Source: Thermoleophilia bacterium (lineage in GTDB: Bacteria; Actinomycetota; Thermoleophilia; RBG-16-64-13). From it: a stretch of DNA of 64,000 nt. The position numbers and the translations under genes are program-made. Numbering within the stretch: the first letter of the stretch is position 1; each line of letters begins with the position of its first letter. The notes under the pieces were generated by a model, which worked only from the letters and a program-made list of their open reading frames with translations, did not search any database and had not been told where the DNA came from. This document shows, in pieces, positions 16,399 through 36,336 of this stretch. The DNA lies in assembly GCA_026415615.1 (NCBI GenBank), contig JAOAGT010000002.1:448545-512544 (forward strand), in the 5' to 3' direction.

Positions 16399-17715
16399 TT
16401 ACTTGCCGGTCACACTGGGAAGCCATGTCGCTAGCCCCGGGATAAGGAACAGGAGCACTACCATCAGCAGCCCGAGGGCAAAGAACGGCATGGAAGAACG
16501 AAACACCTGCCCCAGGGTAGCATGTGGTGGTGCTATAGCCTTCATAGTGTAAACATCCAGTCCAAACGGCGGAGATATCAGACCAAGCTGGATGTTAAGG
16601 AGAGAAACGACCCCGTACCAGATCAGATCGTACCCGAGGGCCTTAGCCAGCGGGAAGAAGATTGGCACCGTGATCATAACGATGCTGGCCGGATCCATGA
16701 ACATGCCGAGGAAGATAAGAATCACTTGAGTAGCGATGATTATGTAGATGGGGGCAATGTTGGCGCCTGTGGCCATATCGATCAGCTTTTGAATGGCCCC
16801 GGTGGTGGCCAGGATGCGGCTGAAGCTAATTGAGCCCACCACAATGAACATAACCATGACGGTGACGCGTACGCAGCTCATGGCGGATTTCGTTACCGTT
16901 TTCCAGCTTAACTGTCGGTAGAAAGCCGCCAGGACAAAGCAGGCTAACACGCCTAGAGCCGCTGCCTCACTCGGGGTGGCCACACCCAGGTATATGCTTC
17001 CGATCACCGCCAGAATGACAATGCCGATTGGGAGGATGTGGAATGTAAACGTGCGAAGCTTGTCTGTGAGGGAGACCTTTTCCACCTCGTAGGTGGGGGC
17101 AAGCGAAGGATCAAGTTTGCAACGTATCATGATGTAGAGGGCAAAGAGAATGGCCAGAAGCACACCGGGGATGATAATGGCCATGAGCAGCTTCCCTACT
17201 GAAATTTGCCCGATGGCTCCCAAAAAGACGGCAAGCGCGCTCGGTGGGATCAGAATGGCTAGGGTCCCGCTGGTGACGATGGGACCGTAAATCATAGCTG
17301 GTTTGTATCCTCGCGCTTCCATTTCGGGTACTAGTACCCGTCCAAGGATGCCAATCGATCCTCCACTGATGCCAATCATCGTCCCCAGAAGGACGCCGGA
17401 CCCTACGGCGAGTAGGCTTAAGCGGCCGGGCACCTTGCCTAGGAGCTTGTCTACCGCGCCCACTATTCGTGCGCCTGCTCCCGAAGAGAAGATGACGTCT
17501 CCCATCAGCACAAAAAGCGGGATGGGTAAAAACGCATAGTTTGCTACCGCGCTGTAAAAGCTCATTGCCAGCTGATCAAGACCCGGCGCCCCGCCCCAAA
17601 ACAGGACAGAACCAATGATGCACGTGAAGGTGAAAGCGAAACATATGGGCATGCCAGTCATCATGATGACAATGAGGCAACCAAACATGATAAGCAGTGA
17701 CGCCAACCATTCCAT
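16399..17715 (-). CDS. TRAP transporter large permease subunit (DctM family)
   Basis: A 438-aa polytopic membrane protein with the DctM pattern. GGAGG RBS. Confidence 0.9.
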   Translation of the reverse strand: MEWLASLLIMFGCLIVIMMTGMPICFAFTFTCIIGSVLFWGGAPGLDQLAMSFYSAVANYAFLPIPLFVLMGDVIFSSGAGARIVGAVDKLLGKVPGRLSLLAVGSGVLLGTMIGISGGSIGILGRVLVPEMEARGYKPAMIYGPIVTSGTLAILIPPSALAVFLGAIGQISVGKLLMAIIIPGVLLAILFALYIMIRCKLDPSLAPTYEVEKVSLTDKLRTFTFHILPIGIVILAVIGSIYLGVATPSEAAALGVLACFVLAAFYRQLSWKTVTKSAMSCVRVTVMVMFIVVGSISFSRILATTGAIQKLIDMATGANIAPIYIIIATQVILIFLGMFMDPASIVMITVPIFFPLAKALGYDLIWYGVVSLLNIQLGLISPPFGLDVYTMKAIAPPHATLGQVFRSSMPFFALGLLMVVLLFLIPGLATWLPSVTGK

Positions 17716-17724
17716 GGCTGCCTC

Positions 17725-18273
17725 CTACTCTGCTTTACCAGCTGGAGGCTGGGTCTCCGCTGGGGTCGGGGGACTGGTCTGCCGGTAGGCTTTAAAGTAG
17801 TTGACCGCGTGCCTTACTGCCTGGATTGTCAGCACCAGAAACGATATGGGAATGATCATCTCGATGGGCCACTTAACCGGATTAAGCACAGTAGCCAAGA
17901 TGAAGTGGTTGAGGTAGTCGTTGATAGTTAGCCGCGCGGTCAGAAAAAGACATAGGAGGCACAGGGCAACTACTACGCATGAAGTGGCGAAGTTAAGCAA
18001 GTTCTGGGCTCTCTTTGAAAGCATTCCAAGAATGGATTCCATCCTTACATGCCCGTGGTCGCGGTAGATGGCGGCTGTGCCAAGAAAGGTAAGCCACACC
18101 ATCGTGTAGGTCAGAAGCTCATACAAAGGTGCCCAGGTGAAGTCGACTGTCTTTCTGATGATTACGTCCTGTGCTATGGCCAAAGTGTCGAGAAGGATCA
18201 AGATGGCCGAGAGCAGCAGGAGAAAGTTAACAAGCTTGTCAAAAGCTCGGCCAGCTTTCTGTAAGAAGCGCAT
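17725..18273 (-). CDS. TRAP transporter small permease subunit (DctQ family)
   Basis: A 182-aa membrane protein with 4 TM segments. It lies between the DctP-like and DctM-like genes. Confidence 0.8.
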   Translation of the reverse strand: MRFLQKAGRAFDKLVNFLLLLSAILILLDTLAIAQDVIIRKTVDFTWAPLYELLTYTMVWLTFLGTAAIYRDHGHVRMESILGMLSKRAQNLLNFATSCVVVALCLLCLFLTARLTINDYLNHFILATVLNPVKWPIEMIIPISFLVLTIQAVRHAVNYFKAYRQTSPPTPAETQPPAGKAE

Positions 18274-18458
18274 GTCACTAACCTCTCACAGGTTGGTTGA
18301 AGTACGCGCAAGCAGAGAAGCAGAGGGCGCGAAGCGGCCCTGGACAGGGCCGCTTCGCGCCCTCACTTGGGTCTTGCCTGGTTCCGCAGGATGGCAAACC
18401 ACCCCGATCCGCCTAGCCTACGACCTGTCTAGCCTATGGCTGGCTAATCCAGGCACCT

Positions 18459-19610
18459 TTACTTGGCGCGCTCAAAGTCTGGATTCACGAGCCATTCCTT
18501 GAGCTTGGGGCCAATCTCGGGCCACCTCGCGATGTCTTCGGCCCACATCGACTCGCGGTACTTCAGATAGAACTGCTTTGACTCCTCAGGCGACAGGTGA
18601 ATGATCTTAATACCCGCAGCTTCAAGATCTGCCTTTACCTTTTCCACTGTCTTGTGGAAGTGGTCCGCCATGTCAATCTCGGTTTGAATCATGGCTTGGG
18701 TGAGCACGGCCTTTTGTTTCTCAGTGAGGCTCTCCCACTTCTTGAGGTTCATGATCATCATGCCGCCGCAGGAGCTGAACGGCTCGTCCAGCATAGCCTT
18801 GGTCACAGGCGTGAGTCCGAAGTCCTGAATGCCGGGGATGCCGATGTTGTAGCCGTCGACTGTCCCGCGCTCCATGGCTGTGAAGTACTCAGTAAAGTCT
18901 ATGGGCACGCAGACTGCGCCGAGGGCCTCAATGAAGGAACGGTTGGAACCGCCGGTGGCTGCGATCTTGAGCCCCTTCAAGTCAGCTAGGCCGTTGATAA
19001 CCTTGCCGAGGTAAATGACCGTCTGCTCCTGGGGACGAGACGAGACAGAGGCCCCCAAGTACTTGATGCCGTTCTTAGCAAATTCTTCCTCGTAGTACTT
19101 AAAGGCTGGGTTGCCGTTGCGCAGCTCTGGCGGGCTGTATTCAGCTCGCCCGATGGTGCTGCATCCGGGGACCATGGTGTCGCAATAGGCGGACATTACG
19201 CTCGCGATATCCATCGTGCCCCTTTGTACTGCAGCTGGCTGGTCCGGGGCGGGGATAGCCTCTGGGCCGTTGAACTTGATGGTCATCTTGCCAGCCGAGT
19301 ATTCCTGGACCTTGTTAATGAAGTCGCGGTGCCAGTCGGCTCCCGGGGGAATATCGGGCAAGAAGCAGGCCATGGAAAGCTCGATAGGCTCTACATCAGC
19401 AATTACCTGAGGCCCCGACGCAGCTGTCGTTTCTGTAGATGGCGCAGTAGTCTCAGTGGGCGCAGCCGTAGTGGTTGTCGCGGGTGCTTGGGTGGTAGCG
19501 GTGGTAGCCGGTGCGGCTGTGGTTGTGGTGGCTTCTTCCTCTCCGCACGATACCGCCAGGATAGACAGCGCAAGTACACAGCAAATGGCTATTATGGCCA
19601 GTTTCCTCAT
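18459..19610 (-). CDS. TRAP transporter substrate-binding protein (DctP family), probable lipoprotein with Thr-rich linker
   Basis: The start is moved to MRKLAIIAICCVLALSILAVSCGEE. The track ORF extends to 19736. A TTTAAP-type linker precedes a DctP-like fold. Confidence 0.85.
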   Translation of the reverse strand: MRKLAIIAICCVLALSILAVSCGEEEATTTTAAPATTATTQAPATTTTAAPTETTAPSTETTAASGPQVIADVEPIELSMACFLPDIPPGADWHRDFINKVQEYSAGKMTIKFNGPEAIPAPDQPAAVQRGTMDIASVMSAYCDTMVPGCSTIGRAEYSPPELRNGNPAFKYYEEEFAKNGIKYLGASVSSRPQEQTVIYLGKVINGLADLKGLKIAATGGSNRSFIEALGAVCVPIDFTEYFTAMERGTVDGYNIGIPGIQDFGLTPVTKAMLDEPFSSCGGMMIMNLKKWESLTEKQKAVLTQAMIQTEIDMADHFHKTVEKVKADLEAAGIKIIHLSPEESKQFYLKYRESMWAEDIARWPEIGPKLKEWLVNPDFERAK

Positions 19611-19838
19611 GGTGCCCCCCAATCCTAAGATTGCCTGATTTTGCCAAGTCTGCCTGCTGACGTGGAAGTCATTTCTCGCAAGTGCCGAGATGTGCTCTGG
19701 TCCGCTCCAACCTCCTTTGCTCCCGTTTGCTGTCAAGCCGGAACCTGTTGATCAGTGCCTCCCGGTATCGCCAAGCGTATAGCGTGGTGCTCCCGGGCCG
19801 AGACTGCTACTCCGGCGCGCCCGACTATGTTAGTGAGG

Positions 19839-19909
19839 ACTACTAGCACACGCTACTAGCGAATGCAACCGGTCTGTGTTATGTAGGACAGGTAATCGAG
19901 TTACTAGAC
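19839..19909. promoter_or_regulatory. candidate operator: CTACTAGC direct repeats in the 450-bp divergent region between dctP and tetR
   Basis: CTACTAGC occurs at 19840-19847 and 19853-19860. A third copy, TTACTAGAC, is at 19901-19909. Confidence 0.3.
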
Positions 19910-20184
19910 AGCGTTCTTACCAGGGCAAGATGCTTCCCTCGGTACTGGGAATGAAAGGCGTGACACACAACATGGACTACCTTGACTTGCCCGCGGGCAA
20001 GAAAGAAAACACCAAGAAGGATGACGGTACTGGCCCTGAGGGCAACAGTTCGTCGCCACAGACCGGAACCACCCTCACCACCCACACCCGTGAGATCTCG
20101 GGAACTGTAGCTCGCAGTAGTGAGACCGCGGGAACAAACGGAGGAGGCAGCAAGAGGAGCTCCGTATCTCTGCGGTGGAAGACC

Positions 20185-20832
20185 ATGAAGCCCGAACAAA
20201 AGAAGGAGGCGGTTATCAAAGCCGTACTGCGGGTGATAGCCAAACACGGGGTTCAAGGTACCACCACCGCTCGTATCGCTGCAGCTCTGGGGGTATCTGA
20301 GCCGACCATCTACCGAGTTTTCCCGAGCCGGCGGGAAATGCTTCTGGCTGCGGCGCAAAGTCTATGGCGGCAACGCCGTGAAGAGCTCGAGGCGTTTGTT
20401 CCAGTTGACGCTATGGACTATCTAAGGAAGTTATCTGCGCATCACACCGCTGGCATCCAGAAAACCAGAGTAACCCGGTATCTTTACGAGCTTTCGGTTG
20501 CGCGGCCTTCTGATGGACTCCGTGACTACTTGCGCGGGGAAATGATCGCCGAAGCAGAACGTCTTGCGGCTATTGTGGAGCAAGGACAAAAAGAAGGGTG
20601 CATCCGTGCAGACGTAGACCCCGGGGAAACAGCCTGGCGGATCATGACCGTTTACTGGCTTGAGGCTATGGCCCGGCTCCATGGGCTTGAGGACATTCTT
20701 CTCACCGGGTTTTCCACCCGGTTTTTCGACGGGATCCTAACCGACATTGCTGCCGCGCCTCTAGATGCACCAGGTGAGCAGCAAACTGTAGGGCAAAGTA
20801 GCGTCAAAGCGAGCGGTCTTGAGGGAGTGTGA
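20185..20832 (+). CDS. TetR/AcrR family transcriptional regulator
   Basis: KAVLRVIAKHGVQGTTTARIAAALGVSEPTIYRVFPSRREM is the TetR HTH. I moved the start to MKPEQKK. The 103 aa the track puts upstream are low-complexity, so they are not called. Confidence 0.8.
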   Translation: MKPEQKKEAVIKAVLRVIAKHGVQGTTTARIAAALGVSEPTIYRVFPSRREMLLAAAQSLWRQRREELEAFVPVDAMDYLRKLSAHHTAGIQKTRVTRYLYELSVARPSDGLRDYLRGEMIAEAERLAAIVEQGQKEGCIRADVDPGETAWRIMTVYWLEAMARLHGLEDILLTGFSTRFFDGILTDIAAAPLDAPGEQQTVGQSSVKASGLEGV

Positions 20833-20836: not shown

Positions 20837-22093
20837 ATGGATCACCAGTCTCCGCAAGTCTTGTACCAAGAGAGATTAAAGAGGATTGAGGACGCCATAG
20901 CACTGCGCCAGCCGGATAGAGTCCCGATCGTGATGTCTGCCGGATATTTTCTGGCTGATCTGGGAGGCATTACCAAACAGCAGCTGCTTGAGGACCCTGA
21001 ACTTTGCCAACAGCTGCTAGAAAAGGCCGCCCTTGAATTTCAGCCTGATTCAATCTGGGGTCCTATGCCGGCGGATCCAACTCCCTCCCTTATTCTGGGG
21101 GACAGACAGAGCGCTTGGCCCGGACACCAGCTTTCGCCCAACAGCCAGTTCCAGTTCGTTGAAGGCGAATTCATGAAGGAAGACGAGTACGAGGAATTCC
21201 TGGAAGATCCCACCGACTGGACCATCCGCACCTATTTGCCGCGGGTGTTTGGGGCGCTTGAAAGCTTTGCGCAGCTGCCGCCTCCGATTCTGTTCCTGTT
21301 TGGCGGGGGTTTTGGCCTTTCTAATTTTGCAATGCTGACCTCAGGGGCATTCGCGGAGTCTTTCAAAGCTTTTGCCAAGGCCTTACAGGCGGTAGCCGAA
21401 GGCCATGAGCGGGCAGCCAGAAATCATGAGCGCATGGCGGCGTTGGGTTTTCCGCCGAGCTTCATGAACGGTCCGATTCTAACCGCTCCCTTCGACGTGA
21501 TGTCTGATGCGGTTCGTGGGATGCGCGGCATTATGCTCGACGTTATTCGGCGTCCCGACAAGCTGCTTGCGGCGCAAGAAAAGGTGATGCGCTTTGAGCT
21601 TAAGTGGGCTCTTGATTTTTGCCGGGCTACGGGCGCAAAGAGAGCTTTTCTGCCTCTTCACAGGGGGTCGGATGGCTTCATGTCGCTGAAGCAGTTTGAG
21701 ACCTTGTACTGGCCGCAGCTGAAGAAGGTTCTCGAGACCCTCATAGAGAACGGCGTGACCCCCGTGGTGTTCTACGAAGGCTGCTGGAATCAAAGACTGG
21801 AGTATCTAGCGGAGCTACCCAAGGGCAAGAGCGTAGGATGGTTCCAAGCAAGCGACATCTTCAAAGTCAAGGAAGTGCTTGGCGACACCATGTGCATCAT
21901 GGGGGGGATGCCAAACTCGCTGCTTAAGGCTGGTCCTGCCGAGGAGGTGCGTGCGTTCACCAAACGCCTTTGCGAAGAGGTTGGCAAGGGCGGGGGATTC
22001 ATCATGACCACCGCGGTTGGCGAATTGGCTGGCTGCGATCCGGATCTCATCAAGGTGTGGGTGGAGGCGACCAAGGAATTTGGGAAAGCTTAG
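20837..22093 (+). CDS. uroporphyrinogen-decarboxylase (URO-D) family protein, MtaA/CmuA-like methyltransferase or decarboxylase
   Basis: 418 aa. The N-terminal RLKRIEDAIALRQPDRVPI, then FKVKEVLGDTMCIMGGM, EEVRAFTKRL and GGGFIMTTAVGE resemble the URO-D TIM-barrel family used by corrinoid-dependent methyltransferases. Confidence 0.5.
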   Translation: MDHQSPQVLYQERLKRIEDAIALRQPDRVPIVMSAGYFLADLGGITKQQLLEDPELCQQLLEKAALEFQPDSIWGPMPADPTPSLILGDRQSAWPGHQLSPNSQFQFVEGEFMKEDEYEEFLEDPTDWTIRTYLPRVFGALESFAQLPPPILFLFGGGFGLSNFAMLTSGAFAESFKAFAKALQAVAEGHERAARNHERMAALGFPPSFMNGPILTAPFDVMSDAVRGMRGIMLDVIRRPDKLLAAQEKVMRFELKWALDFCRATGAKRAFLPLHRGSDGFMSLKQFETLYWPQLKKVLETLIENGVTPVVFYEGCWNQRLEYLAELPKGKSVGWFQASDIFKVKEVLGDTMCIMGGMPNSLLKAGPAEEVRAFTKRLCEEVGKGGGFIMTTAVGELAGCDPDLIKVWVEATKEFGKA

Positions 22094-22123
22094 CAAAGCA
22101 CAGGAAAGCTTAGGAATGAAACC

Positions 22124-22858
22124 ATGGACCTCAAGTTGAAGGATAAAGTTGCGCTCGTTACAGGAGCAGGGAGTCCCATAGGCTATGGCAGGGCAATTGC
22201 TCTCACCCTGGCCGAAGAGGGCTGTCGAGTTGCCTGTGCTGACCTACGACTTGACTGGGCAGAGGAGACCGCTGCCCTAATCAGAGAGGCAGGCGGCGAA
22301 GCCTTCGCAGTCAAGGTTGACGTGACCGACATGGCCCAGGTGGAGGCCATGGTGGAGGCGGTTGTTGCCCGATACGGGCGGATCGACATTCTCGTTAACA
22401 ACGCTGGCAAAAGCAGCATCGACAAACCTTTCATGGAAAAGACCCGGGCAGACTGGGATCTCGATATTCAGGTGAATTTGTATGGCCAAATGAACGTGGC
22501 GCGCGCAGTGATTCCTCACATGGCCAGGCAAGGCTATGGGCGCATCATTAACACTTCCGGCGGGCAGGGCTTGCCGACCGTATCCACTTACGGAGCAGCC
22601 AAAGCAGGGGTGGAAGCATTTACACATTCGTTGGCCATGGAGGTTGCCTCCTTGGGGATCATCGTAAACGCCATTGCCCCGGGGCTGGGGGAGACCGGCC
22701 TGATTTCGGCCAGCGAAGAACACAAAGAGGGGTATCGGCGTATGTCGGCCCTAAAACGCCTTTGCACTCCAGCCGACGTGGCACCTGCGGTGGCGTTTCT
22801 AGCTTCGGATGTTTGTAGCTACATGGTTGGGCAGTGCCTCAGGTTGAGTACCCACTAG
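22124..22858 (+). CDS. short-chain dehydrogenase/reductase (SDR), FabG-like
   Basis: ALVTGAGSPIGYG, NNAG, YGAAKAG (YxxxK) and PG. Confidence 0.9.
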   Translation: MDLKLKDKVALVTGAGSPIGYGRAIALTLAEEGCRVACADLRLDWAEETAALIREAGGEAFAVKVDVTDMAQVEAMVEAVVARYGRIDILVNNAGKSSIDKPFMEKTRADWDLDIQVNLYGQMNVARAVIPHMARQGYGRIINTSGGQGLPTVSTYGAAKAGVEAFTHSLAMEVASLGIIVNAIAPGLGETGLISASEEHKEGYRRMSALKRLCTPADVAPAVAFLASDVCSYMVGQCLRLSTH

Positions 22859-22873
22859 CAAGGAGTACCAGTC

Positions 22874-23095
22874 ATGGCCATACGTCACTTTAGTCGTGAC
22901 GATTGCACGGGATGCGGGATATGTGTCGCTGCGTGTCCCATGGATGTGCTTCGTCTGGATGAGGAAGCGCAGAAGGCAACCGTAAGCTATCCCGACGACT
23001 GCATCGCCTGCTGGGGTTGCGAGTCGTTCTGTCCGCAGGGTTGTTTCGATATTTCTCCCGAACGGGCCCGCGGGGAGCTACCCGCTCCTTACTGA
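22874..23095 (+). CDS. 2x[4Fe-4S] ferredoxin
   Basis: CTGCGICVAACP and CIACWGCESFCP. 73 aa. Confidence 0.85.
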   Translation: MAIRHFSRDDCTGCGICVAACPMDVLRLDEEAQKATVSYPDDCIACWGCESFCPQGCFDISPERARGELPAPY

Positions 23096-23118
23096 GTCTC
23101 GCGGAGTAACAAAGGCGA

Positions 23119-24849
23119 GTGGGAAGGAAAGACATGAGAGGCTGGGATCAAACGCCGGTTAGGATTGCTGCCGATGTGCTGGTGCTGGGAGCGGGCGGTG
23201 CTGGCATGTGTGCGGCGCTTAAAGCGCGGGAAATCGGCGCTGATGTTCTGATGGTAGACAAGTGCGGCATCGGCTACAACGGGCAGGTGCCTATCGGGGG
23301 CGGCATACTCGCGTACATTTACCCCTCCTACGTAGAGACGTGGGTTGAGAAAGTTACCCGCCAGAGCCATTTCTTCAACAACCAGGAATGGACGTATCTC
23401 TTTGGCCGCTCAATGGACCCAGTTACTACTGAGCTTGCGAAGCTAGGGCTCACATTCTTGCGGAAAGAGGGCGAGATCGAGATTCTAACCTGGGGTCCAA
23501 ATATCCATGTGACGCTATTTGACGCGCCCAAGTCCTTAGTGGCCCTAAAAAGAACAGCCGCCGCCCGGGGCGTGCGCATGATGGACAAGATTTTTGCTGT
23601 CGATCTGCTCAAGAAAGACGACCGTGTGGTAGGAGCGGTGGCCTTTGGGTTGGTAGATGGGCGGGTTTATGTTTTTGATGCCAAGGCAGTAATTGTTGCC
23701 ACCGGGAACTGCGGCTACCAGCATGAAAAAACTTACAGCTCCGTCCAAGGCGAGGGCCCAGCTATGGGTTATCGAGCGGGGGCCAAACTCACCAACGCCG
23801 AGTTCAACAGCATGTACGTGTGGGGAGCTAAGGTCCTTGGCAAGGAGTTAATGGGCATCCATTACTACCTGTATCTCGAGAACGCCCGGGGAGAAAAGAT
23901 TATGGGCAAGCACTATCCGGAGCTGATGGTAGGAAAGCATGCCGTCTACACCTTTGATCCTCGGGTTATTGACGCCATGTACAAAGAGGTCCAGGCTGGG
24001 CTAGGACCCATCTATCTAAACCTCACGGGGCTGAGCGAGGAAGAAATTGCAGGGCTTGCCGAAGACGTCGTGGAAGAACTCTCTCATCTTATGGCAAACG
24101 ACTCCATGCGTTTGCTTCGGGAAAAGGCCGGCATTGATCCCACGAAAGAGCGCATCGAAATGTGGCCTCGTCTGTTGTACACGGGGGGCGGCATGCTGGT
24201 GGACACAGAGTGTCGAACGACTGTCCCAGGTCTTTGGGCGGCGGGGGGAGCGTGCAGCACCTTGTGGACTAACGGCGGCGGTGGTCAGGGCGGTCTAGGG
24301 GTACAGAACGCCGCGGTTACTGGATTTGTCGCTGGGGAGAGTGCAGCCAAATGGGCGGCGGAGACAACGCTTGTGCGCGCCGATGATGCCCATGTTGAGC
24401 AAGTTGTGGGGCGGATTATTGAGCCGCTTGTGCGGGAAGGGGCGGGCGACCCGTACGAGGTCACCTACCGAGTACATGAAGCAATAGTTCCCATGAAGTA
24501 CAACCGCATCCGAGAGGCTACTAGGATGCGTGAGGCACTGGGGATCTTGGCGGATGCGCGCGAAAAACTGTCTCGTATAAGCGTCCGCAATTTCCACGAT
24601 CTAGCCCGTTATCACTCAGCAGAAAGCATGCTGATGGCGGCGGAGTTTACCTACCAGGCTGCTTTAATGCGCCAGGAGAGCAGAAGCCAGCACTATAGAG
24701 AAGATTTCCCCGCGCGAGACGACGCAAATTGGCTTAAGTGGATCACGATCGAAAAGGGGGCAAACGGCCCCGAGCTTGGTGTTGTACCCGTGCCCTTGGA
24801 GAAGTACCCGCTCAAACCAGACTGGTGGCCAGCATTGAGCGGGAATTAG
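23119..24849 (+). CDS. FAD-dependent oxidoreductase, fumarate reductase/succinate dehydrogenase flavoprotein-like
   Basis: VLVLGAGGAGMCAAL (GxGxxG) and a C-terminal HYREDFPARDDANWLKW like the FrdA/SdhA tail. It lies directly after the small ferredoxin. Confidence 0.8.
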   Translation: MGRKDMRGWDQTPVRIAADVLVLGAGGAGMCAALKAREIGADVLMVDKCGIGYNGQVPIGGGILAYIYPSYVETWVEKVTRQSHFFNNQEWTYLFGRSMDPVTTELAKLGLTFLRKEGEIEILTWGPNIHVTLFDAPKSLVALKRTAAARGVRMMDKIFAVDLLKKDDRVVGAVAFGLVDGRVYVFDAKAVIVATGNCGYQHEKTYSSVQGEGPAMGYRAGAKLTNAEFNSMYVWGAKVLGKELMGIHYYLYLENARGEKIMGKHYPELMVGKHAVYTFDPRVIDAMYKEVQAGLGPIYLNLTGLSEEEIAGLAEDVVEELSHLMANDSMRLLREKAGIDPTKERIEMWPRLLYTGGGMLVDTECRTTVPGLWAAGGACSTLWTNGGGGQGGLGVQNAAVTGFVAGESAAKWAAETTLVRADDAHVEQVVGRIIEPLVREGAGDPYEVTYRVHEAIVPMKYNRIREATRMREALGILADAREKLSRISVRNFHDLARYHSAESMLMAAEFTYQAALMRQESRSQHYREDFPARDDANWLKWITIEKGANGPELGVVPVPLEKYPLKPDWWPALSGN

Positions 24850-24900
24850 CTGGTAGTTGGATAGGCGGCCCTCAACGGTAAAGGAGGCGGGAAGAGCGCG

Positions 24901-26367
24901 ATGGTAAGCAAAGAAAGACTGGCAGAGATAGTAGGGGCTGCGAATGTCAGCAGCGAGCCGGATGTTCTTGAGCAGTACGCCAGGGACGTGAGTTTTGTCA
25001 ATCATACAAGACCGGCGTACGTGGTTAAGCCCCATACCGCCCAGGAGGTCAAGGACCTTGTCAAACTGGCCAACGAGAGCCGTACGCCTCTGGTGCCAGT
25101 GAGCTCGGGCCCACCGCACTTTCGGGGAGATACGGTGCCCACAGCGGGCGGGGCGGTGGTGGTAGACCTGAGTGAGATGAAACGCATCGTGTTTGTGGAT
25201 CGCCCGCGCAGAGTGGCCATGGTTGAGCCAGGCGTGACCTTTGGAGAACTCATTCCGGCTGCCACCAAGGAAGGGATTAGGCTAAACATGCCTCTCTTGC
25301 CTAGAACGACCAAGACAGTCGTGGGCAGCATGTTAGAGAGGGAACCTGTGGTCATGCCCAAGTATCAGTGGGACATCTCCGATCCCTTGGCGTGCGTTGA
25401 GGTAATCTTCGGCACGGGTGACGACTTCCGCACGGGCCAGGCCGCTGGACCCGGCACCATCGAAGAGCAGTGGCAGGTCGGGGGAGTGCAGAAAGCCCCC
25501 TACGGGCCTCACATTACCGCGTGGCATAGGCTCATTCAGGGAGCTCAGGGAACCATCGGAATCGTGACCTGGGCCTCTTTGCGCTGTGAGCTGCTGCCTC
25601 GGTTACAGGAGCCTTACGTCGTAGCAAGTGCGCAGCTGGGACCTTTGGTGGAGATGGCAGCCTGGTTGATTCGGCTAAGGATGGCCAACGAGTGCTTCAT
25701 TTTGTCGAATGCCAACCTGGCTGCGATCTTTGCCGAAGACTGGCCAAACGATTACGTCAAGCTAAAAGCCTCTCTGCCCTCTTGGACATTGTTCTACGTT
25801 CTGGCCGGCTACGAGTACTTCCCCGAAGAGAGGGTGGCGTCATATCAGAAGCAAGTCGTATCTCTTTGTCAGCGCCTAGCTCTGGAGCCGCTGCGGGCGG
25901 TGGGCGGACTTTCTGCGCGCAGCATCATGAAAGCTGTGCAGAACGTGTGCCCCGAACCCTACTGGAAGCTCCGCTACAAAGGCGCCTCAGAGGACGTGTT
26001 CTTCCTTACCACCAACGACAAGGTGGAAGGATTTGTAAGTACGATGCAGGCTCTTGCTGCCGAGGTAGGGTACGCTGCCTCTGACTTAGGAGTCTATGTC
26101 CAGCCAGTGGTGCAAGGTACGGCTTGTCACGTAGAGTTCAACCTCTTCTACGATCCAGGTGACAGCAAAGAAGTCGAGCGGACTAGATGTCTTGCCGGCA
26201 TTGCCACGAAAGCGTTCTTGGATGATGGCGCCTTCTTCTCTCGTCCATACGGCGAGTATGCCCGGGACATCATGAATCGCGATGCTGCGTCGCTAGATGT
26301 GCTTAAGAAGCTGAAGGGGATCTTTGATCCCAACAACATCATGAACCCGGGCAAGCTTTGCTTCTGA
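24901..26367 (+). CDS. FAD-linked oxidase (PCMH/FAD_binding_4 type), GlcD-like
   Basis: The FAD-binding N-terminal domain (VVKPHTAQEVKDLVKLANESRTPLVPVSSG...) and oxidase C-terminal domain are present. Confidence 0.8.
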   Translation: MVSKERLAEIVGAANVSSEPDVLEQYARDVSFVNHTRPAYVVKPHTAQEVKDLVKLANESRTPLVPVSSGPPHFRGDTVPTAGGAVVVDLSEMKRIVFVDRPRRVAMVEPGVTFGELIPAATKEGIRLNMPLLPRTTKTVVGSMLEREPVVMPKYQWDISDPLACVEVIFGTGDDFRTGQAAGPGTIEEQWQVGGVQKAPYGPHITAWHRLIQGAQGTIGIVTWASLRCELLPRLQEPYVVASAQLGPLVEMAAWLIRLRMANECFILSNANLAAIFAEDWPNDYVKLKASLPSWTLFYVLAGYEYFPEERVASYQKQVVSLCQRLALEPLRAVGGLSARSIMKAVQNVCPEPYWKLRYKGASEDVFFLTTNDKVEGFVSTMQALAAEVGYAASDLGVYVQPVVQGTACHVEFNLFYDPGDSKEVERTRCLAGIATKAFLDDGAFFSRPYGEYARDIMNRDAASLDVLKKLKGIFDPNNIMNPGKLCF

Positions 26368-26429
26368 GCTTTGCTTCTGAGGCGAGGCCTGTTGGTGAGA
26401 CATTGGTCGTAGCAGAAGGAAGGAGCGAG

Positions 26430-27704
26430 ATGGCATTAGAAGATTACGCCGGTGACATGAACATGTGTTGCCGCTGCTCGGCATGCAAGTTCATACCACT
26501 GCAGATGATCAAAGGGTATAAGCATGCCTATGTGTGCCCCAGCATCTCCCGGTACAACTTCCACTTCTTCTCTGGCGGCGGCAGACTGAACCTGGGGGTG
26601 GCGGGGCTGGAGCAGGGGTTCAAATACACGCCCTGGTACCTCTCCAGTGTCTATAACTGTCAGCAATGCGGCGCCTGCGACGTGTCCTGCAAGTACGGCA
26701 TGGACATGGAGGTCCTGCTTCCCATCCAGGAGCTTCGCATCAAGGCAGTGGAAGACGGGCATGCGCATCCGGCTCTGGCGCGCGTGGTGGAGCGGATGAA
26801 CAAGACCGGGAGCATGGTCCCCATGGAAGGGGCAAGCCGTGGGGACTGGGCTGCGGACTTGGGCCTCAAAGACGCCACCCAAGAGAAGGTGGAGGTTCTC
26901 TACCACGTAGGGTGCCTGACCAGCTTTGATAAGGATATGCAGGCGGTGGCTCGGGCGACGGCCAAGGTACTTGGCGCGGCCGGGATTGACTTTGGCATCC
27001 TGGGCGATGCCGAGACCTGCTGTGGGGGGCGCGCCTACGAGATGGGCCACAAGAATGACTTCATGACTCAGGCCAAGAAGAGCATGGAGGTCATCCGGTC
27101 CACTGGGGCAAAATTCCTGGTCACGAGCTGCGCCGAGTGCTACCAGGCCTACAAGGTTCTCTACGATCGTTTTGGCCTACGGAATGATTCGGAGCTTAAG
27201 GTTCTCCATACCTCTCAGCTTCTAGACGAGGTGATAAGCCAGGGCAACCTCAAGCTAAGTGGCCGGGTCGATCTGTGTGTTACTTATCACGATCCTTGCC
27301 ATCTGGGCAGACTAGGAGAGCCCTGGATCCACTGGCAGGGTAAAAAAGTGCCGGGCGACCGCTTCATCTTTGACCCGCCGAAGCCTTACCGCCGCGGCAC
27401 TAACGGGGTATACGAGCCGCCGCGCCGGGTGCTAAAAAGCGTACCCGGGGTGATTCTCGAGGAGATGGACCGCATAAAGGAATACGCGTGGTGCGCTGGT
27501 TCGTGCGGTGGTGTTACCGACTCCAATCCGGAGTTTGCCGAATGGACCGCCGAGCAGCGTCTCGAAGAGGCGCTCTGCACAGGCGCGGAGGCGATTGTCT
27601 CGGCTACCCCGTGGGGCGAGAAGCTCCTGCGCGATGTCGCAAAGAAGAACGACGTGCAGCTCGAGGTTTATGACCTTGTTGAACTGGTCGCCCAGGCTAT
27701 CTAG
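26430..27704 (+). CDS. Fe-S oxidoreductase with two 4Fe-4S motifs and two CCG domains (GlcF/HdrD-like)
   Basis: CxxCxxC..CP and CQQCGACDVSC, then CCGG and CAGSCGG cysteine-rich CCG motifs. I moved the start to MALEDY, which is preceded by AGGAAGGAG. Confidence 0.75.
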   Translation: MALEDYAGDMNMCCRCSACKFIPLQMIKGYKHAYVCPSISRYNFHFFSGGGRLNLGVAGLEQGFKYTPWYLSSVYNCQQCGACDVSCKYGMDMEVLLPIQELRIKAVEDGHAHPALARVVERMNKTGSMVPMEGASRGDWAADLGLKDATQEKVEVLYHVGCLTSFDKDMQAVARATAKVLGAAGIDFGILGDAETCCGGRAYEMGHKNDFMTQAKKSMEVIRSTGAKFLVTSCAECYQAYKVLYDRFGLRNDSELKVLHTSQLLDEVISQGNLKLSGRVDLCVTYHDPCHLGRLGEPWIHWQGKKVPGDRFIFDPPKPYRRGTNGVYEPPRRVLKSVPGVILEEMDRIKEYAWCAGSCGGVTDSNPEFAEWTAEQRLEEALCTGAEAIVSATPWGEKLLRDVAKKNDVQLEVYDLVELVAQAI

Positions 27705-27721
27705 GAAGGAGGTCGAAAGCC

Positions 27722-29212
27722 TTGGCACTTACTAAGGAAATGTATGAGGCGTTCGCAGGGGTAGTGGGGGAAGAGAATCTCTGCGACGATCCCGCCATGA
27801 TGGCTGCTTATTTCCGCACGGATTTTGCGGCGGTGGTGATGCCCAAGGACACTGCCGAAGTCCAAGCGGTCGTCAGATTGTGCAATAAGTTCAAGCTAAA
27901 GTTTAGGCCCATATGTACAGGCTGGACGGGAGTCTTCCAGCCGGGCAGCGTTCTGCTTGATCTGCGGCGGATGAACCGCATCATCGAGATCAACGAAAAG
28001 AACATGTATGCGGTAGTGGAGCCGTACGTGACTTCTGCCCAGCTGCAGGCTGAGCTGTTTAAGCGAGGGCTGAACACCAACATGAAGGGGGCAGGAGCCC
28101 AGTGTTCGGCCATGCTTCGGGGCCACGGACATCTCGATCAGTCGTGTGGCGCTGACGATCGCAATCACCTAGCTGTGGAGTGGGTGACTCCCGAGGGCGA
28201 GCTGGTCAAGATGGGATCCTGGGGCGCCATCGGTGAGTGGTTCTGTGGCGATGGGCCAGGCCCCTCTTTGCGCTCCCTTGTGTCCAGTGTGGTTCCGCCG
28301 AGCACCACTCCGGGCGTCTTCACCAAGGTGGCGATGAAGCTTTATCACTGGCCGGGGCCTGATAAGTACGCGCTGGAGGGCTACTCTCCCAAATATACGT
28401 TGCGGGAGTTTCCGCCCAACATGATGGCTCGGTACTACAGCTTCCCCACGCTTGAGAAGATGTGGCAGGCGGAGATTGCCATCGGCGAGGCGGAGATCGC
28501 TCTTGAGCTCATGGGCTTCAACGCGGCCATGGTGGCGGCGAATATCACCACCTGCAACGAAGAAGAAATGGCCATGTTTGAACGCCTCTCTAAGGAGGTG
28601 CAGGGGCCGGGCTTCTTTGTGATCATAGCTGGCGATTCTCCAGAAGACTTTGCCTACAAGAAAAAGGTCCTTGAGACTATCGTCAAGGAAAATGACGGGC
28701 AGTCGCTTAAGACAGTCGAAGATCCGGAGCTTGAGGGTATCCTGCTTACGCAGTGCACAAGAATCAGTGCATCAGTTCGGGAGACGTTCCGACCGGGTGG
28801 GTACTTCAAGTCGATTCCCATCATGGGTCAACGTGACCTTACTATTCGTTGGGCTGTAGGTGCTGGCAAGGCCAAGCTCCCGCTTATTGAGCAGGGTCTT
28901 ATTGCCGATGACGGTGGCGGATTCTTCGGCTGGGGAGTGGAGCACGGTCATCTCGGCAAGACGGAGATCTTCTGCAAGTTCAGTCCGCTTAATCCCGAGG
29001 CCTGGAAAGCGGTTAACAAGTGGCACCAGGAGCAGGTCCAGCGGGCGCTTGACGAAAAGTACTTTGCTCTCACCATGGGGCCGCAGGAAGAGATCGACAA
29101 GAAGGTTGGGCCCGCTCTCTCGAACTATCACTTGTGGTGGTACAAGGTGCTCGACGCCTTAGACCCCAACGGAGTGGTGCCTGACAAGGGCCTGAGCAAT
29201 CTTACGCCGTAG
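27722..29212 (+). CDS. FAD-linked oxidase-like protein (divergent, GlcE-like)
   Basis: The N-terminus resembles a FAD_binding_4 domain (AVVMPKDTAEVQAVVRLCNKFKLKFRPICTGW...). TTG start after GGAAGGAGG. Confidence 0.6.
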   Translation: MALTKEMYEAFAGVVGEENLCDDPAMMAAYFRTDFAAVVMPKDTAEVQAVVRLCNKFKLKFRPICTGWTGVFQPGSVLLDLRRMNRIIEINEKNMYAVVEPYVTSAQLQAELFKRGLNTNMKGAGAQCSAMLRGHGHLDQSCGADDRNHLAVEWVTPEGELVKMGSWGAIGEWFCGDGPGPSLRSLVSSVVPPSTTPGVFTKVAMKLYHWPGPDKYALEGYSPKYTLREFPPNMMARYYSFPTLEKMWQAEIAIGEAEIALELMGFNAAMVAANITTCNEEEMAMFERLSKEVQGPGFFVIIAGDSPEDFAYKKKVLETIVKENDGQSLKTVEDPELEGILLTQCTRISASVRETFRPGGYFKSIPIMGQRDLTIRWAVGAGKAKLPLIEQGLIADDGGGFFGWGVEHGHLGKTEIFCKFSPLNPEAWKAVNKWHQEQVQRALDEKYFALTMGPQEEIDKKVGPALSNYHLWWYKVLDALDPNGVVPDKGLSNLTP

Positions 29213-29214
29213 GG

Positions 29215-29257
29215 GGTGGGCGGGCGCAGGCCCTGCAGGGCCTGCGCCCGCCCCCTT
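29215..29257 (+). terminator. palindromic terminator hairpin ending the plus-strand operon
   Basis: GGGCGGGCGCAGGCCC-TGCA-GGGCCTGCGCCCGCCC, a perfect 16-bp stem, followed by CCTTTC. Confidence 0.65.
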
Positions 29258-29359: not shown

Positions 29360-30883
29360 TTGACAGCCCTACCCGAGAGAACAGCAAGCTGGTGCCAAGC
29401 GTTGTTCTTTGCTGGATCCACGACCTACATGTGGAATCAGGCGCCGGAGCTTAAAGCGCTTTTCTTGACGGCCTGCTCCTTCGAGGAAGGTATGGACGTA
29501 CTCCTTATAGGCAAGTTCTTGGAGGAAAGCGGTCTTGTTTCGGCCGTTGAGTCGATCCTACGGAGCTGGGGCAATCTGCGGGTAGTGGACTTGGCTCCCC
29601 AGGTTGTGGCTGCATGGCGGGCGGCGGGTGTGGCAGATGAGCAGCCTTCTTTCAAATGGGATCTTGATTGTTTTGATGAGCTCAGAGATGGGAGTCTCGA
29701 CCGTGTCGTGTTGTTTAACGCGGCCTCCCACGTTGCGGACTGGGAACATCTGTCTGCTCAAATCGGCCGGGTTCTTTGTCGAGGAGGCCGGGTTGTAGTC
29801 GCAGAGGCTCCACTGGGCGGGGCTGCTTTTAAACGCGCCCTTGCCTTTCACGCAGGATGGCGAGCAACGGTCGAAGGATTGCTTAGCGGCTTGGATCTAG
29901 AAGAAAGGGCAGTTGCTCCGCCAGAACCGGAGGATCTCAGGGCTCTGCTTGCCCAGCATATGACTTGGGCTCGTGTGCATGAGTGGCAGGGAATCTTTAT
30001 TTGCTACGGACAAAAAGGTCTCACAGAAAGGGAGGAGCTGGAAGCGTCCACAGCTGCCGAGATGGCCGGTCTGGGGGAGAATGATCTGGTCTACGTACCC
30101 GGTCCGGACACGTTTACAGCTTTTCCGCCGGCCAACATCTGGGTGCGCAGTTTCTTGAAGGTGCGTCCAGTGCGCACCACGTGGAGCCTTATGAGCGAGC
30201 TTGAGAAGGAAATTTGGGCAGACACCGCTGTAGAACTAGTGACACACTCAGGTGGCGATCTGTCAACAAATAAGGTGCTGGGGCTTAGCTTGATCGTCGA
30301 GTCGCCACAATCTGAGTTGGCGTCGCAGACACTGGTTTTGACGAAGCCTGCTGCAATAGGAGATGCGCTAGGAGGCTTTTCTCATCACTGGGCTTCTGGG
30401 CTTGTCGGCGCGTTTCTGGAATGCTTCCTGGGTCCAGATGATGGCCACCTTGCAAAGGTTGGAGAAACGCATGGTCCTTCTGAGCTGGGAAGTCTTGTTG
30501 CCAGACACTCGGCAGACGAGCTTGATCTTCTTTTTGTTGACGCCAGACTGGGTGACAGACACTACTGGAAGGAAACAATATCCCTCCTGTTGCCGGTTCT
30601 AAAACCCGGGGGCCGGCTTGTGTTATTTGCGGAAGATGGCGATGCTATCCAGCTGCTGTCGTTTCACAGCGCCTTCGCGCGCCTGCTTCTGGCAAGACTA
30701 GTGACTCCAGCAGACCCACTCGCTGCAGACTCCGCGGACGCGCTCTGTAACCGACTGACGGGCGGCATAAATATGGACCCCGAGTTGCTGCGCCAAGTGC
30801 TTGCAGGGTTCTTTGATGAGATCTCTGTGGCAGGACACGGCGGCTTCGTATTTGTGTCTGGCCGAAAACCTATGCGTCTTTAG
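29360..30883 (+). CDS. protein with two tandem class-I methyltransferase-fold halves, function unknown (paralog B)
   Basis: It shares extended motifs with 7864-9591: WCQALFFAGSTTYMWNQAPELKALFLTACSFEEGMDVLLIGKFLEESGL, DRVVLFNAASHVADWEH and RVVVAEAPLGG. TTG start after GGCAAGGAGG. Confidence 0.55.
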   Translation: MTALPERTASWCQALFFAGSTTYMWNQAPELKALFLTACSFEEGMDVLLIGKFLEESGLVSAVESILRSWGNLRVVDLAPQVVAAWRAAGVADEQPSFKWDLDCFDELRDGSLDRVVLFNAASHVADWEHLSAQIGRVLCRGGRVVVAEAPLGGAAFKRALAFHAGWRATVEGLLSGLDLEERAVAPPEPEDLRALLAQHMTWARVHEWQGIFICYGQKGLTEREELEASTAAEMAGLGENDLVYVPGPDTFTAFPPANIWVRSFLKVRPVRTTWSLMSELEKEIWADTAVELVTHSGGDLSTNKVLGLSLIVESPQSELASQTLVLTKPAAIGDALGGFSHHWASGLVGAFLECFLGPDDGHLAKVGETHGPSELGSLVARHSADELDLLFVDARLGDRHYWKETISLLLPVLKPGGRLVLFAEDGDAIQLLSFHSAFARLLLARLVTPADPLAADSADALCNRLTGGINMDPELLRQVLAGFFDEISVAGHGGFVFVSGRKPMRL

Positions 30884-35106: not shown

Positions 35107-36336
35107 TTATGGGGTGGTCTGTGGGGCGGTCCCTGAGAGTTTCTTGGCCAGAGCCGGGAGACCTATGACGTCAAGCGTACGAATCTCTGAGCGGTTGGTT
35201 TCAAACAGAGTGGCAAAACCTGTGGGTAGCTCTCCGTTTCTCGCTAGGAGCAAAATGCCGTTGTCCTGCGCAAGACACGCGCTAGCTACCAAGGCATCGG
35301 CAAAGCTATCGCCACTCGCAATACAAGTGTGCGCGAAGCTCAACCCGTTCCGTGAGGCGTAACTCACTACGGCAGCGGCGGTGGTGAATGGGTCAGTCTC
35401 GTTAATAGTCTCCACAGTAGCAAGAGAGAGCTTGGTCTGTGTTCCCACTATGAGTGCCGATGTCACTCCAGCCTGGTCCAGAAATGAGGTTACCTGTGCA
35501 GGTAACTTGGCGTCGCGTCTGGTAAGAACCACAGGCCACTTGTGCGCGCCAGCGAGCGGGCCAACGGCGACCGCTTCAACAAAGTCATCCGAGGGGACAA
35601 CCACGACCCGAGCAATGGTCTCCAATTTGCCGGCTAGCGTCTGCGCTATAAGCACTGCGGTTTGGTAGGCGTCATCGCCAGTTATCGTGGTGACCTGGGG
35701 CTTGTCCAGTATTTCTCTTAGTCGAGAAGCGGTCGCTTTAGCCTTTGGAACTCCCACCAGGAAGACCTGGACTGGGTCAAGCCTCTTGAGCTCCGTCTCT
35801 AAATCACCGCGCAGCCCCGAGGGGGGCATCAGCAGCACGGGTCCCCCGTAAGCAGCTGCTAAGGGAGGGACGCAGATACCATGCTCGAAGCTCTCCCCAG
35901 AAACCAAGACTACGCTCGGCGCTCCTGTGGGGAAGTTTAGCCGCGAAACAGCTATGGCTGTGGCGTAGCGGTCTTCGCCAGCGGGGATGTTGTTTACTAT
36001 GAGAGGTTCAGTGGTAGTGGTGGTGGACGTCTCTTCTACATAAGGGGTCGTGCTAGGTACGGTGTAGGCTGTTTCCGTTGTATTGGAGGCAAACAACGGG
36101 AACACAAGTCGCTCCGCGGTGTAGTAGAGAGCGTATGCAATTGCCGCTATCACACCGAGAGAAAAAAGCCACTTAACAACTTGTGCTCCCACGCGGATGT
36201 AAGTGGTCCCGCCGAGCAAACCCAGGTGAACCCGGGGAAGACGCGCCCCGCAGTACCAGCAATACTTGCTTCCGCGAGTGTTGGTTCCACCGCACTCGCG
36301 ACACTCGATGCCCTGATCTTGCTTCTCAGCAGCCAC
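35107..36336 (-). CDS. cell-wall-binding repeat (CW_binding_2) protein with N-terminal zinc-ribbon and TM anchor
   Basis: CRECGG..CWYCG zinc ribbon, a TM helix, then three repeats of the clostridial cell-wall-binding repeat 2 (...GDDAYQTAVLIAQ...). Confidence 0.75.
   Translation of the reverse strand: MAAEKQDQGIECRECGGTNTRGSKYCWYCGARLPRVHLGLLGGTTYIRVGAQVVKWLFSLGVIAAIAYALYYTAERLVFPLFASNTTETAYTVPSTTPYVEETSTTTTTEPLIVNNIPAGEDRYATAIAVSRLNFPTGAPSVVLVSGESFEHGICVPPLAAAYGGPVLLMPPSGLRGDLETELKRLDPVQVFLVGVPKAKATASRLREILDKPQVTTITGDDAYQTAVLIAQTLAGKLETIARVVVVPSDDFVEAVAVGPLAGAHKWPVVLTRRDAKLPAQVTSFLDQAGVTSALIVGTQTKLSLATVETINETDPFTTAAAVVSYASRNGLSFAHTCIASGDSFADALVASACLAQDNGILLLARNGELPTGFATLFETNRSEIRTLDVIGLPALAKKLSGTAPQTTP

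Follow-up and report, generated by a model that had tools for sequence, protein, structure and literature searches.

Several described enzyme systems provide the closest counterparts for the genes considered in this work. GlcDEF of Escherichia coli and the two-subunit Dld-II of Desulfovibrio vulgaris (DVU3027-28) are dehydrogenases of the glycolate/D-lactate/2-hydroxy-acid type, the VAO/PCMH proteins are 4-phenol oxidoreductases, and TfrAB is the thiol:fumarate reductase of methanogens. The PAPS reductase of Methanothermococcus thermolithotrophicus (structure 8a8o) is an AprAB-like enzyme whose beta subunit is a two-cluster ferredoxin domain (PMC10322725), and CdmB is the chloromethane:corrinoid methyltransferase I (MT I) of Acetobacterium, which is related to the O-demethylases MtvB, OdmB and VdmB and works without zinc (PMC13222342). 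In this study, we have analysed a 64-kb window of DNA from a Thermoleophilia bacterium (all coordinates given below are positions within this window), in which relatives of these systems are encoded side by side. Eight open reading frames (ORFs) located on the plus strand between 19.9 and 29.3 kb specify, in this order, a TetR-family regulator, a URO-D-like protein, a short-chain dehydrogenase/reductase (SDR), a 2[4Fe-4S] ferredoxin, a FrdA-superfamily flavoprotein and the three proteins that are our main subject, viz. a flavin adenine dinucleotide (FAD) protein (FAD1), a CCG-domain iron-sulfur (Fe-S) protein and a second FAD protein (FAD2).

Judged from their sequences, these last three proteins, referred to below as the trio, make up a predicted three-subunit FAD/Fe-S dehydrogenase of a previously undescribed and widely distributed family, no member of which has been studied and which is absent from curated naming models. 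Their host is an uncultured soil or sediment actinobacterium with a conserved, repressor-controlled gene island of self-contained redox enzymes. The island is an ordinary-looking catabolic regulon, of interest chiefly for the widespread FAD1-CCG-FAD2 family encoded in it; it represents a good lead and not a solved pathway.

The FAD1-CCG-FAD2 trio and its distribution

The trio genes, all on the plus strand, encode FAD1 (24901-26367; FAD_binding_4), a flavoprotein of the VAO superfamily; a GlcF/HdrD-like Fe-S protein (26430-27704; CCG E = 1.3e-25, Fer4_8), which combines a 2x[4Fe-4S] domain with two CCG domains, the second of them degenerate; and FAD2 (27722-29212; FAD_binding_4 E = 4.7e-20), a very divergent VAO-superfamily flavoprotein of 496 amino acids (aa). 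A preliminary description of this DNA had likened the three proteins to GlcD, GlcF and GlcE. The likeness in subunit composition (two FAD_binding_4 proteins and one Fer4/CCG protein) is borne out, but orthology to GlcDEF is not. Against the NCBIfam models, FAD1 scored 52.4 bits on TIGR00387 (GlcD; cut-off 568) and 30.7 bits on PRK11230 (cut-off 897), FAD2 scored 44.1 bits on TIGR00387 and had no GlcE match, and the CCG protein scored 25.2 bits on the GlcF model PRK11274 (cut-off 333), its best match being TfrB with 132 bits (cut-off 385). Because the GlcD, GlcF and YdiJ models are reached at only 5-10% of their cut-offs and GlcE is not matched, the trio is not orthologous to GlcDEF.

Both single-sequence and profile searches of solved structures place the two FAD subunits nearest to the 4-phenol-oxidising VAO/PCMH clade. 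The FAD1 profile matched VAO/PCMH at E = 1.6e-26 (with a full-length PCMH alignment at 5e-24), D-lactate dehydrogenase at 1e-16 and a 'glycolate oxidase' at 1e-12, and the best match of the FAD2 family profile was the PCMH-type structure 9h40 (8.5e-15). An AlphaFold2 model of FAD1 reached a predicted local distance difference test score (pLDDT) of 96.4 when a diverse alignment from a representative search was supplied (27 close homologues gave a pLDDT of 47), and Foldseek found VAO/PCMH structures (full-length TM 0.80-0.84) and D-lactate dehydrogenases to be nearest to this model. The identity of FAD1 to both of these clades is ~20%, and it appears to keep neither catalytic signature, the place of the lactate-type GEHG motif reading FSRPYG in the alignment. 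FAD1 would accordingly be classed, by its sequence, as a family of its own that is as close to VAO/PCMH as to the D-lactate dehydrogenases, and its predicted pocket looks basic, which would suit an anionic substrate. FAD2 aligns to FAD1 over the N-terminal 126 aa only (32% identity); it contains a conserved GVE(Q/H)GHLGK stretch and, relative to PCMH, a four-residue deletion in the pyrophosphate loop.

The cysteine residues conserved in the CCG subunit, as judged from 56 family members, comprise nine for two [4Fe-4S] clusters, four in the first CCG domain and two in the second. This Fe-S protein is always encoded between the two FAD genes, and no cytochrome gene is present in the operon or in the syntenic loci. 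A physical complex of the three proteins is supported by natural fusions, viz. a FAD1-FAD2 protein of 1066 aa (P0416) and a FAD1-CCG run-on protein.

Metagenome-assembled genomes (MAGs) from anoxic soil, peat, aquifer and sediment contain the trio family in abundance. The FAD1 superfamily consists of 309 clusters (50% identity) at E < 1e-30 and of 1377 at E < 1e-10, and a single scan for the trio locus, in which each species was represented by one genome, yielded 80 loci, every one from a MAG. These loci belong to Dehalococcoidia/Dehalococcoidales/Dehalococcoidaceae (57), Actinomycetota (12), other Chloroflexota (7), Acidobacteriota (2), Zixibacteria (1) and Desulfobacterales (1). The order FAD1-CCG-FAD2 is retained in 57 of the 80, covering five or six phyla, and most of the remainder are cut by contig ends; the D-F-E order, which had been described as atypical, is thus the norm for this family. 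The neighbours of the trio vary widely in Dehalococcoidia, and in some Dehalococcoidales a second, more divergent trio copy (45-62% identity) is found beside the first (L048:13068-16305; L035, minus strand), which indicates that the family has paralogous subtypes.

All of the window proteins were mapped onto the 80 loci by tblastn. The complete operon from TetR to FAD2, together with the divergent arm that encodes a TRAP transporter and an aldehyde:ferredoxin oxidoreductase family protein (AFOR), was found in Actinomycetota only, on 10 distinct MAG contigs besides the window and with protein identities of 55-85%; the URO-D-like homologues that occupy this same two-armed locus are 67-72% identical. 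The synteny search called for in the preliminary description has therefore recovered the whole arrangement in 10 further contigs of Actinomycetota, and the arrangement is not due to chance. On one contig (contig_47830; L002/L077) the genes for the flavoprotein, AFOR, DctM and the second SDR are all broken up, each into two or three ORFs, probably by frameshifts of long-read assembly and not by decay. No literature on this combination of genes in Dehalococcoidia or Thermoleophilia was found.

The methyltransferase-like protein and the ferredoxin-flavoprotein pair

The URO-D-superfamily protein (20837-22093, plus strand; PF01208 E = 1.4e-19) had been proposed to be possibly a corrinoid-dependent methyltransferase, and this suggestion has gained support. 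In searches of solved structures its match to CdmB (9rui) had E = 7e-38 and 133.9 bits, against E = 1.6e-4 and 24 bits for HemE; on this evidence we classify it as a predicted corrinoid MT I and not as HemE. Two homologues of 59-61% identity (P0119, P0099) are located in operons that consist of genes for a Pterin_bind protein (MT II), a B12-binding protein, URO-D proteins and RACo, one of these operons having three MT I paralogues. Five residues, viz. His97, His275, Glu314, Cys353 and Cys379, do not vary among 118 homologues. The zinc ligand pattern of MtaA, which we take to be His-x-Cys...Cys, appears here in altered form: at the His-x-Cys position, as we place it, the sequence reads His-Arg-Gly, so that His275 is followed at +2 by Gly277 and at +78 by Cys353.

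The next redox module consists of a 73-aa 2x[4Fe-4S] ferredoxin (22874-23095, plus strand; two CxxCxxCxxxCP motifs, Fer4 families), a beta-like partner of the protein encoded downstream, and a flavoprotein of the SdhA/FrdA/AprA superfamily that lacks fumarate-binding residues (23134-24849, plus strand; FAD_binding_2 and Succ_DH_flav_C). The best solved relative of the flavoprotein is the alpha subunit of the PAPS reductase 8a8o (E = 3.9e-40). Its NCBIfam scores are all far under the cut-offs (the best 201 bits against 587, aprA 66.5 against 642, PRK06854 134 against 557), as is that of the ferredoxin on aprB (37 bits against 136), and no ATP sulfurylase or APS kinase domain is present among the annotated ORFs of the window. 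Alignment to the FrdA protein of E. coli revealed that the His44 of covalent FAD attachment is replaced by Asn, and that the substrate-site residues His232, His355 and Arg390 are replaced by Tyr, Leu and Gly/Gln, respectively. The pair is accordingly predicted to have the AprAB/PAPS-reductase architecture, and the residues at the active site indicate a substrate other than fumarate, succinate or aspartate. The preliminary description had likened the ferredoxin and this FrdA-like protein to C=C or 'ene' reductases, fumarate-type enzymes among them. The superfamily label can be kept, and the loss of the site residues argues against fumarate/succinate chemistry; other reductive reactions, including C=C reduction, are compatible with the sequence.

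The flavoprotein family is tight (258 matches), and across phyla its gene is always directly preceded by that of the ferredoxin, which is always 73 aa in length. In Dehalococcoidales the two genes form a stand-alone unit, which lies near rpoBC, ruvB and queH in two of the three loci examined, and because it stands alone there we regard the pair as a module apart from the trio. The idea of a single redox cascade, as put forward in the preliminary description, is weakened by the fact that in other phyla the pair is found without the trio and the trio without the pair. Taken as a whole, that description was sound in its family-level labels, and two of its three functional analogies require revision.

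Operon layout, shared palindrome and neighbouring genes

The co-directional arrangement, the gene order and the family assignments made earlier agree with our results for all eight ORFs, whose Pfam domains are, from first to last, TetR_N; URO-D; adh_short; 2x Fer4; FAD_binding_2 with Succ_DH_flav_C; FAD_binding_4; Fer4_8 with 2x CCG; and FAD_binding_4. Start codons were reassigned from Shine-Dalgarno sequences and the lengths of homologues. The regulator gene (20185-20832, plus strand; TetR_N E = 1.3e-12; listed ORF 19876-20832) probably starts at ATG 20185, giving a protein of 215 aa, instead of at 19876, and its homologues in the syntenic loci are 208-239 aa long. For the CCG protein, ATG 26430 is the probable start instead of 26358 (424 aa, compared with 421-422 aa in homologues), and for the flavoprotein ATG 23134 is a possible one, the listed ORF beginning at GTG 23119. 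With these starts, the successive intergenic gaps are 4, 30, 15, 23-38, 51, 62 and 17 nucleotides. The SDR of this operon (SDR1; 22124-22858, plus strand; adh_short_C2 E = 1.8e-57) reached no NCBIfam equivalog cut-off.

A terminator had been placed after the last gene, and a perfect, G+C-rich hairpin (29214-29255, plus strand; -47.4 kcal/mol, z = -4.6) is indeed located directly 3' of the FAD2 stop codon. It is a probable operon terminator, and none of 200 shuffled sequences gave one as good. A consensus promoter and terminator scan performed no better than on shuffled sequences, and it missed this hairpin because of the weak T tail (3 T). The methyltransferase-like gene for 507 aa at 29360-30883 (plus strand) was considered as a further operon member and rejected because of its position past the hairpin and its lack of conservation across the syntenic loci. 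This protein and another large one of 575 aa (7864-9591, plus strand) flank the island, and both have only a weak Methyltransf_11 match.

The region between the regulator gene and the divergent dctP gene contains a 21-bp imperfect palindrome (19839-19859; ACTACTAGCACACGCTACTAG; CTAnTAGC-N4-GCTAnTAG), which we infer to be the predicted operator of the TetR protein. A generic repeat search missed it, and it came to light when k-mers were compared among the DctP-TetR intergenic regions; its consensus over the syntenic loci, likewise an imperfect palindrome, is ACTACTAGCA(C/T)ACGCTACTAG. The site is single in the window even when 3 mismatches are allowed (0 expected, from 100 shuffles); each of the 10 other syntenic contigs has it in the corresponding intergenic region, whereas the rest of the 80 loci lack it, and in three loci it occurs a second time, immediately before the URO-D-like gene. 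Since the conserved palindrome is common to both arms, they are considered to form one regulon. The link between the plus-strand genes and the divergent transporter arm, which had been assumed earlier, is thereby upheld by synteny in 11 contigs and by the shared operator-like site.

The divergent arm, which is transcribed from the minus strand, begins with the TRAP transporter genes (16399-19736; DctP 18459-19736, DctQ 17725-18273 and DctM 16399-17715, identified by Pfam), which are present in all of the syntenic loci. The best solved relative of DctP is 4mnc (E = 2e-22), a structure presumed to be a benzoylformate complex, which we do not use as evidence. Ahead of its DctP domain, the protein has a long low-complexity stretch (residues ~43-107; spurious 'New_glue' match), which is suggestive of a lipoprotein-type tether as in monoderm cells, and a CW_binding_2 cell-wall protein is encoded at 35107-36336. 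Beyond the transporter lie the gene for the tungsten-type AFOR family protein (14473-16320; AFOR_N E = 8.8e-75, AFOR_C E = 7e-101), which is syntenic in Actinomycetota, and a group of four genes (11285-14447, minus strand; Pfam) for a second SDR (SDR2; 13650-14447), a cupin-like protein (13137-13646), a double cupin-like protein (12067-13092) and a SnoaL_4 protein (11285-12025).

The two cupin-like proteins (169 and 341 aa) match no Pfam or NCBIfam family model. They belong to one undescribed family with a 136-aa ORF that is inserted after the URO-D-like gene in some loci and with proteins of 300-330 aa that are encoded downstream of the trio in Chloroflexota, all of which share an invariant HxH...E...H pattern (HxHxxxE...H). 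This pattern is typical of metal cupins, and solved cupins match the family at E ~0.01 only. In 22 loci from several phyla, members of this family are encoded at a distance of no more than 10 kb from the trio, and they adjoin it repeatedly in Actinomycetota, Dehalococcoidia and Chloroflexia, examples being those at 12067-13646 (minus strand) of the window and at L019:6757-7695, L021:14180-15181 and L032:14305-16129. A gene for AFOR adjoins the trio in 6-7 Dehalococcoidia loci, and SDR and SnoaL_4 genes also recur near it in several phyla; the recurrence of these four families beside the trio fits an oxidation route that forms alcohols and aldehydes. In five Dehalococcoidia loci (L023, L027, L043, L058 and L068) the trio is followed by genes for glutaredoxin, MarR, an ABC exporter pair (741 and ~640 aa) and an FMN reductase, in part with a double cupin, an arrangement that suggests a link with thiol or redox homeostasis.

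Other redox genes of the window lie outside the island. The genes for ETF beta, ETF alpha and ETF:quinone oxidoreductase (46641-50180, plus strand) are located under a divergent LysR regulator, and the presence of the last of these makes a quinone pool likely; together the genes imply acyl-CoA oxidation in this presumed anaerobe. The region 40736-44093 (minus strand), with 44108-45331, encodes a molybdopterin enzyme, whose first domain resembles AhtL (pyrogallol-phloroglucinol transhydroxylase large subunits), and a beta subunit with Fer4_11 and CarboxypepD_reg domains, beside an acyl-CoA dehydrogenase. This enzyme hints that the organism may handle hydroxylated aromatics anaerobically. An AhtL-like gene is also found near the ferredoxin-flavoprotein pair of one Dehalococcoidales locus (L089). 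Further along the window (50837-54199, plus strand), the gene for a radical SAM protein precedes that for a molybdopterin oxidoreductase of 857 aa, which has an Fe4S4 domain.

Possible function and comparison with known systems

We interpret the locus as a TetR-controlled catabolic island of a Thermoleophilia-type actinobacterium, consisting of ~16 genes in two divergent operons and built from separately portable modules, an interpretation to which, including the steps that follow, we give about an even chance of being correct. The TRAP system would import an organic anion, and the repression by TetR would then be relieved. The MT I would transfer a methyl group, the likeliest source of which is a methoxy group, to a corrinoid protein whose gene lies elsewhere. 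The trio would dehydrogenate or hydroxylate the substrate at FAD, and the electrons would travel from FAD by way of the CCG subunit, first its two [4Fe-4S] clusters and then its CCG-domain cluster, to menaquinone or a disulfide. The SDRs and the aldehyde oxidoreductase would process the alcohols and aldehydes that arise as intermediates, and the ferredoxin and flavoprotein would run a separate, ferredoxin-linked redox step on a probably anionic substrate. The repeated occurrence of trio, SDR and AFOR together fits a route from alkyl to alcohol to aldehyde to acid, as in p-cresol degradation. As to the substrate, we guess with little confidence at an organic acid that is methylated and possibly aromatic, e.g. 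a methoxylated acid, either aromatic or alicyclic, that derives from lignin or humic matter.

A broader proposal is made here only tentatively, and we doubt it more than we trust it. It holds that FAD1-CCG-FAD2 may be a new class of O2-independent VAO-superfamily enzyme, in which two divergent flavoproteins form a heterodimer wired to an HdrD/GlcF-like Fe-S subunit, and which, together with the metal-cupin family, would oxidise or hydroxylate recalcitrant anionic organic matter (e.g. lignin- or humic-derived acids) in uncultured Dehalococcoidia, Actinomycetota, Chloroflexia, Acidobacteriota, Zixibacteria and Desulfobacterales. In the Thermoleophilia-type actinobacteria, this enzyme would have been incorporated into a TetR regulon, alongside an orphan corrinoid methyltransferase and a reductase of the AprAB-like kind whose substrate is not a sulfur compound.

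Several observations weigh against the interpretation of the island. In a hidden Markov model alignment of FAD1 to 8s7t, the phenolate-binding triad (Tyr108, Tyr503 and Arg504 in the numbering of the VAO family) corresponds to Arg75, Ser447 and Arg448, so that Arg504 is the sole triad residue kept. The position of VAO Asp170 or EUGO Asp151 (compare the P151 variants in 8s7x) aligns to Arg135 of FAD1, with Lys138 nearby, both of which are conserved. With the phenolate triad and Asp170 missing, a phenolic substrate is not indicated for FAD1 and classical phenols are argued against. Neither the 64-kb window nor the flanks of the syntenic loci contain a gene for a corrinoid protein, an MT II or the RACo activase, and two of four close homologues of the URO-D-like protein (61-64% identity; P0062, P0087) follow acyl-CoA dehydrogenase/ETF genes and are likewise unaccompanied by these three components. 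In Dehalococcoidia the trio and the ferredoxin-flavoprotein pair are separate, the pair often lying beside housekeeping genes, and their co-location in the island need not therefore signify one pathway. Lastly, all of the genomes with the locus are uncultured MAGs.

Four other explanations, three for the trio and one for the URO-D-like protein, must be set beside the catabolic island. A role as a 2-hydroxy-acid dehydrogenase, like that of Dld-II in Desulfovibrio, remains a serious rival: the trio would be a divergent glycolate/D-lactate/2-hydroxy-acid dehydrogenase of the GlcDEF or Dld-II type that feeds the quinone pool, and the operon would oxidise an imported 2-hydroxy acid. We consider it unlikely on balance, since the GlcD, GlcF and YdiJ models are matched so poorly and GlcE not at all, for FAD1 the profiles favour VAO/PCMH over these enzymes by ~10 orders of magnitude (1.6e-26 compared with 1e-16), for FAD2 they do so by 4-7 orders, and Foldseek also favours VAO/PCMH; moreover, the GEHG position reads FSRPYG, and FAD2 is of full length (496 aa), unlike GlcE. 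The same VAO/PCMH relationship leads to another possibility, which we judge to be improbable to a similar degree, that the trio is an O2-independent PCMH-like hydroxylase. It would act via a quinone methide on the para-alkyl or benzylic group of a phenolic acid, after O-demethylation by the MT I, and SDR and AFOR would then oxidise the alcohol and the aldehyde to the acid, as in the degradation of p-cresol and 4-ethylphenol. The best relatives of the FAD subunits by sequence and Foldseek (viz. vanillyl-alcohol dehydrogenase, PCMH, eugenol oxidase, 4-ethylphenol oxidase and pinoresinol hydroxylase), the recurrence of SDR and AFOR beside the trio in several phyla, and the presence in the same operon of an MT I of the O-demethylase clade are all consistent with this possibility, as is the fact that the PCMH of Geobacter has two paralogous alpha subunits; the loss of the phenolate residues argues against it.

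The CCG subunit could also be a thiol/disulfide site of the HdrD/TfrB type, in which case the trio, perhaps with the TfrA-like flavoprotein of the operon, would couple the oxidation or reduction of its substrate to a low-molecular-weight thiol or a glutaredoxin couple and not to quinone. TfrB is the best NCBIfam match of the CCG protein (132 bits) and TfrA is among those of the flavoprotein (167 bits), and in the five Dehalococcoidia loci glutaredoxin, MarR, the exporter pair and the FMN reductase come directly after the trio. However, all of these scores are far below cut-off, of the CCG-domain cysteines only about six are conserved, the second of these domains being degenerate, the flavoprotein has no fumarate-site residues, and it is unlinked to the trio outside Actinomycetota; this coupling thus appears decidedly improbable. 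There is still less to recommend a reading of the URO-D-like protein as a cofactor-free decarboxylase that acts on an arylacetate-type side chain as HemE acts on uroporphyrinogen, for which we see only a slight chance. The URO-D fold, the absence of a corrinoid protein nearby, which some close homologues share, and the incomplete MtaA-type His-x-Cys motif (His275, Gly277, Cys353 at +78) would agree with such an activity. The protein is, however, far nearer to the characterised MT I CdmB, itself zinc-free, than to HemE, and its 59-61% homologues are found in corrinoid methyltransferase operons, where several MT I paralogues may accompany one corrinoid protein.

If the trio is an anaerobic dehydrogenase or hydroxylase of plant- or humic-derived acids, a so far unassigned step in the carbon turnover of uncultured Dehalococcoidia and Actinomycetota would be explained, and the VAO superfamily would gain a new type of electron acceptor. 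The Fe-S-linked flavoprotein pair would likewise show that the AprAB architecture has been reused for a reaction that is not that of fumarate and probably does not involve sulfur. The actinobacterial regulon offers testable handles in the binding protein of its transporter, its repressor and the candidate operator of the latter.

With the corrinoid methyltransferase systems (Mtv/Odm/Vdm and CdmBCA) the island shares a URO-D-like protein that groups with their MT I; it differs from them in that the MT I is here an orphan within a redox operon, its partners, if they exist, being encoded elsewhere. The ferredoxin-flavoprotein pair resembles AprAB and the AprAB-like PAPS reductase in having a fumarate-reductase-superfamily flavoprotein devoid of the covalent-FAD His beside a small 2x[4Fe-4S] subunit, and is set apart from them by model scores below cut-off, by the lack of sulfate-activation genes in the window and by a beta subunit of 73 aa. 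As in TfrAB, a FrdA-superfamily flavoprotein and a CCG Fe-S protein are encoded in one operon, and TfrB is the top NCBIfam match of the latter; here, however, the scores are below cut-off, the fumarate-site residues have been lost, and the two genes are split by FAD1 and are unlinked in other phyla. The trio itself has in common with GlcDEF and Dld-II the combination of FAD_binding_4 flavoprotein(s) with a soluble 2x[4Fe-4S]/CCG subunit and the presumed path of electrons from the substrate via FAD and Fe-S clusters to a membrane acceptor, whereas it departs from GlcDEF in its gene order (FAD-CCG-FAD, as opposed to D-E-F), in a FAD2 of full length unlike the short GlcE, and in a degenerate second CCG domain. 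For both FAD subunits, the best matches by sequence profile and by Foldseek are VAO/PCMH 4-phenol oxidoreductases, and FAD1 retains an equivalent of VAO Arg504; the identity to them is ~20%, and in place of the O2 or cytochrome c with which these enzymes work, the flavoproteins of the trio are partnered by a CCG Fe-S protein in hosts that are presumably strict anaerobes.

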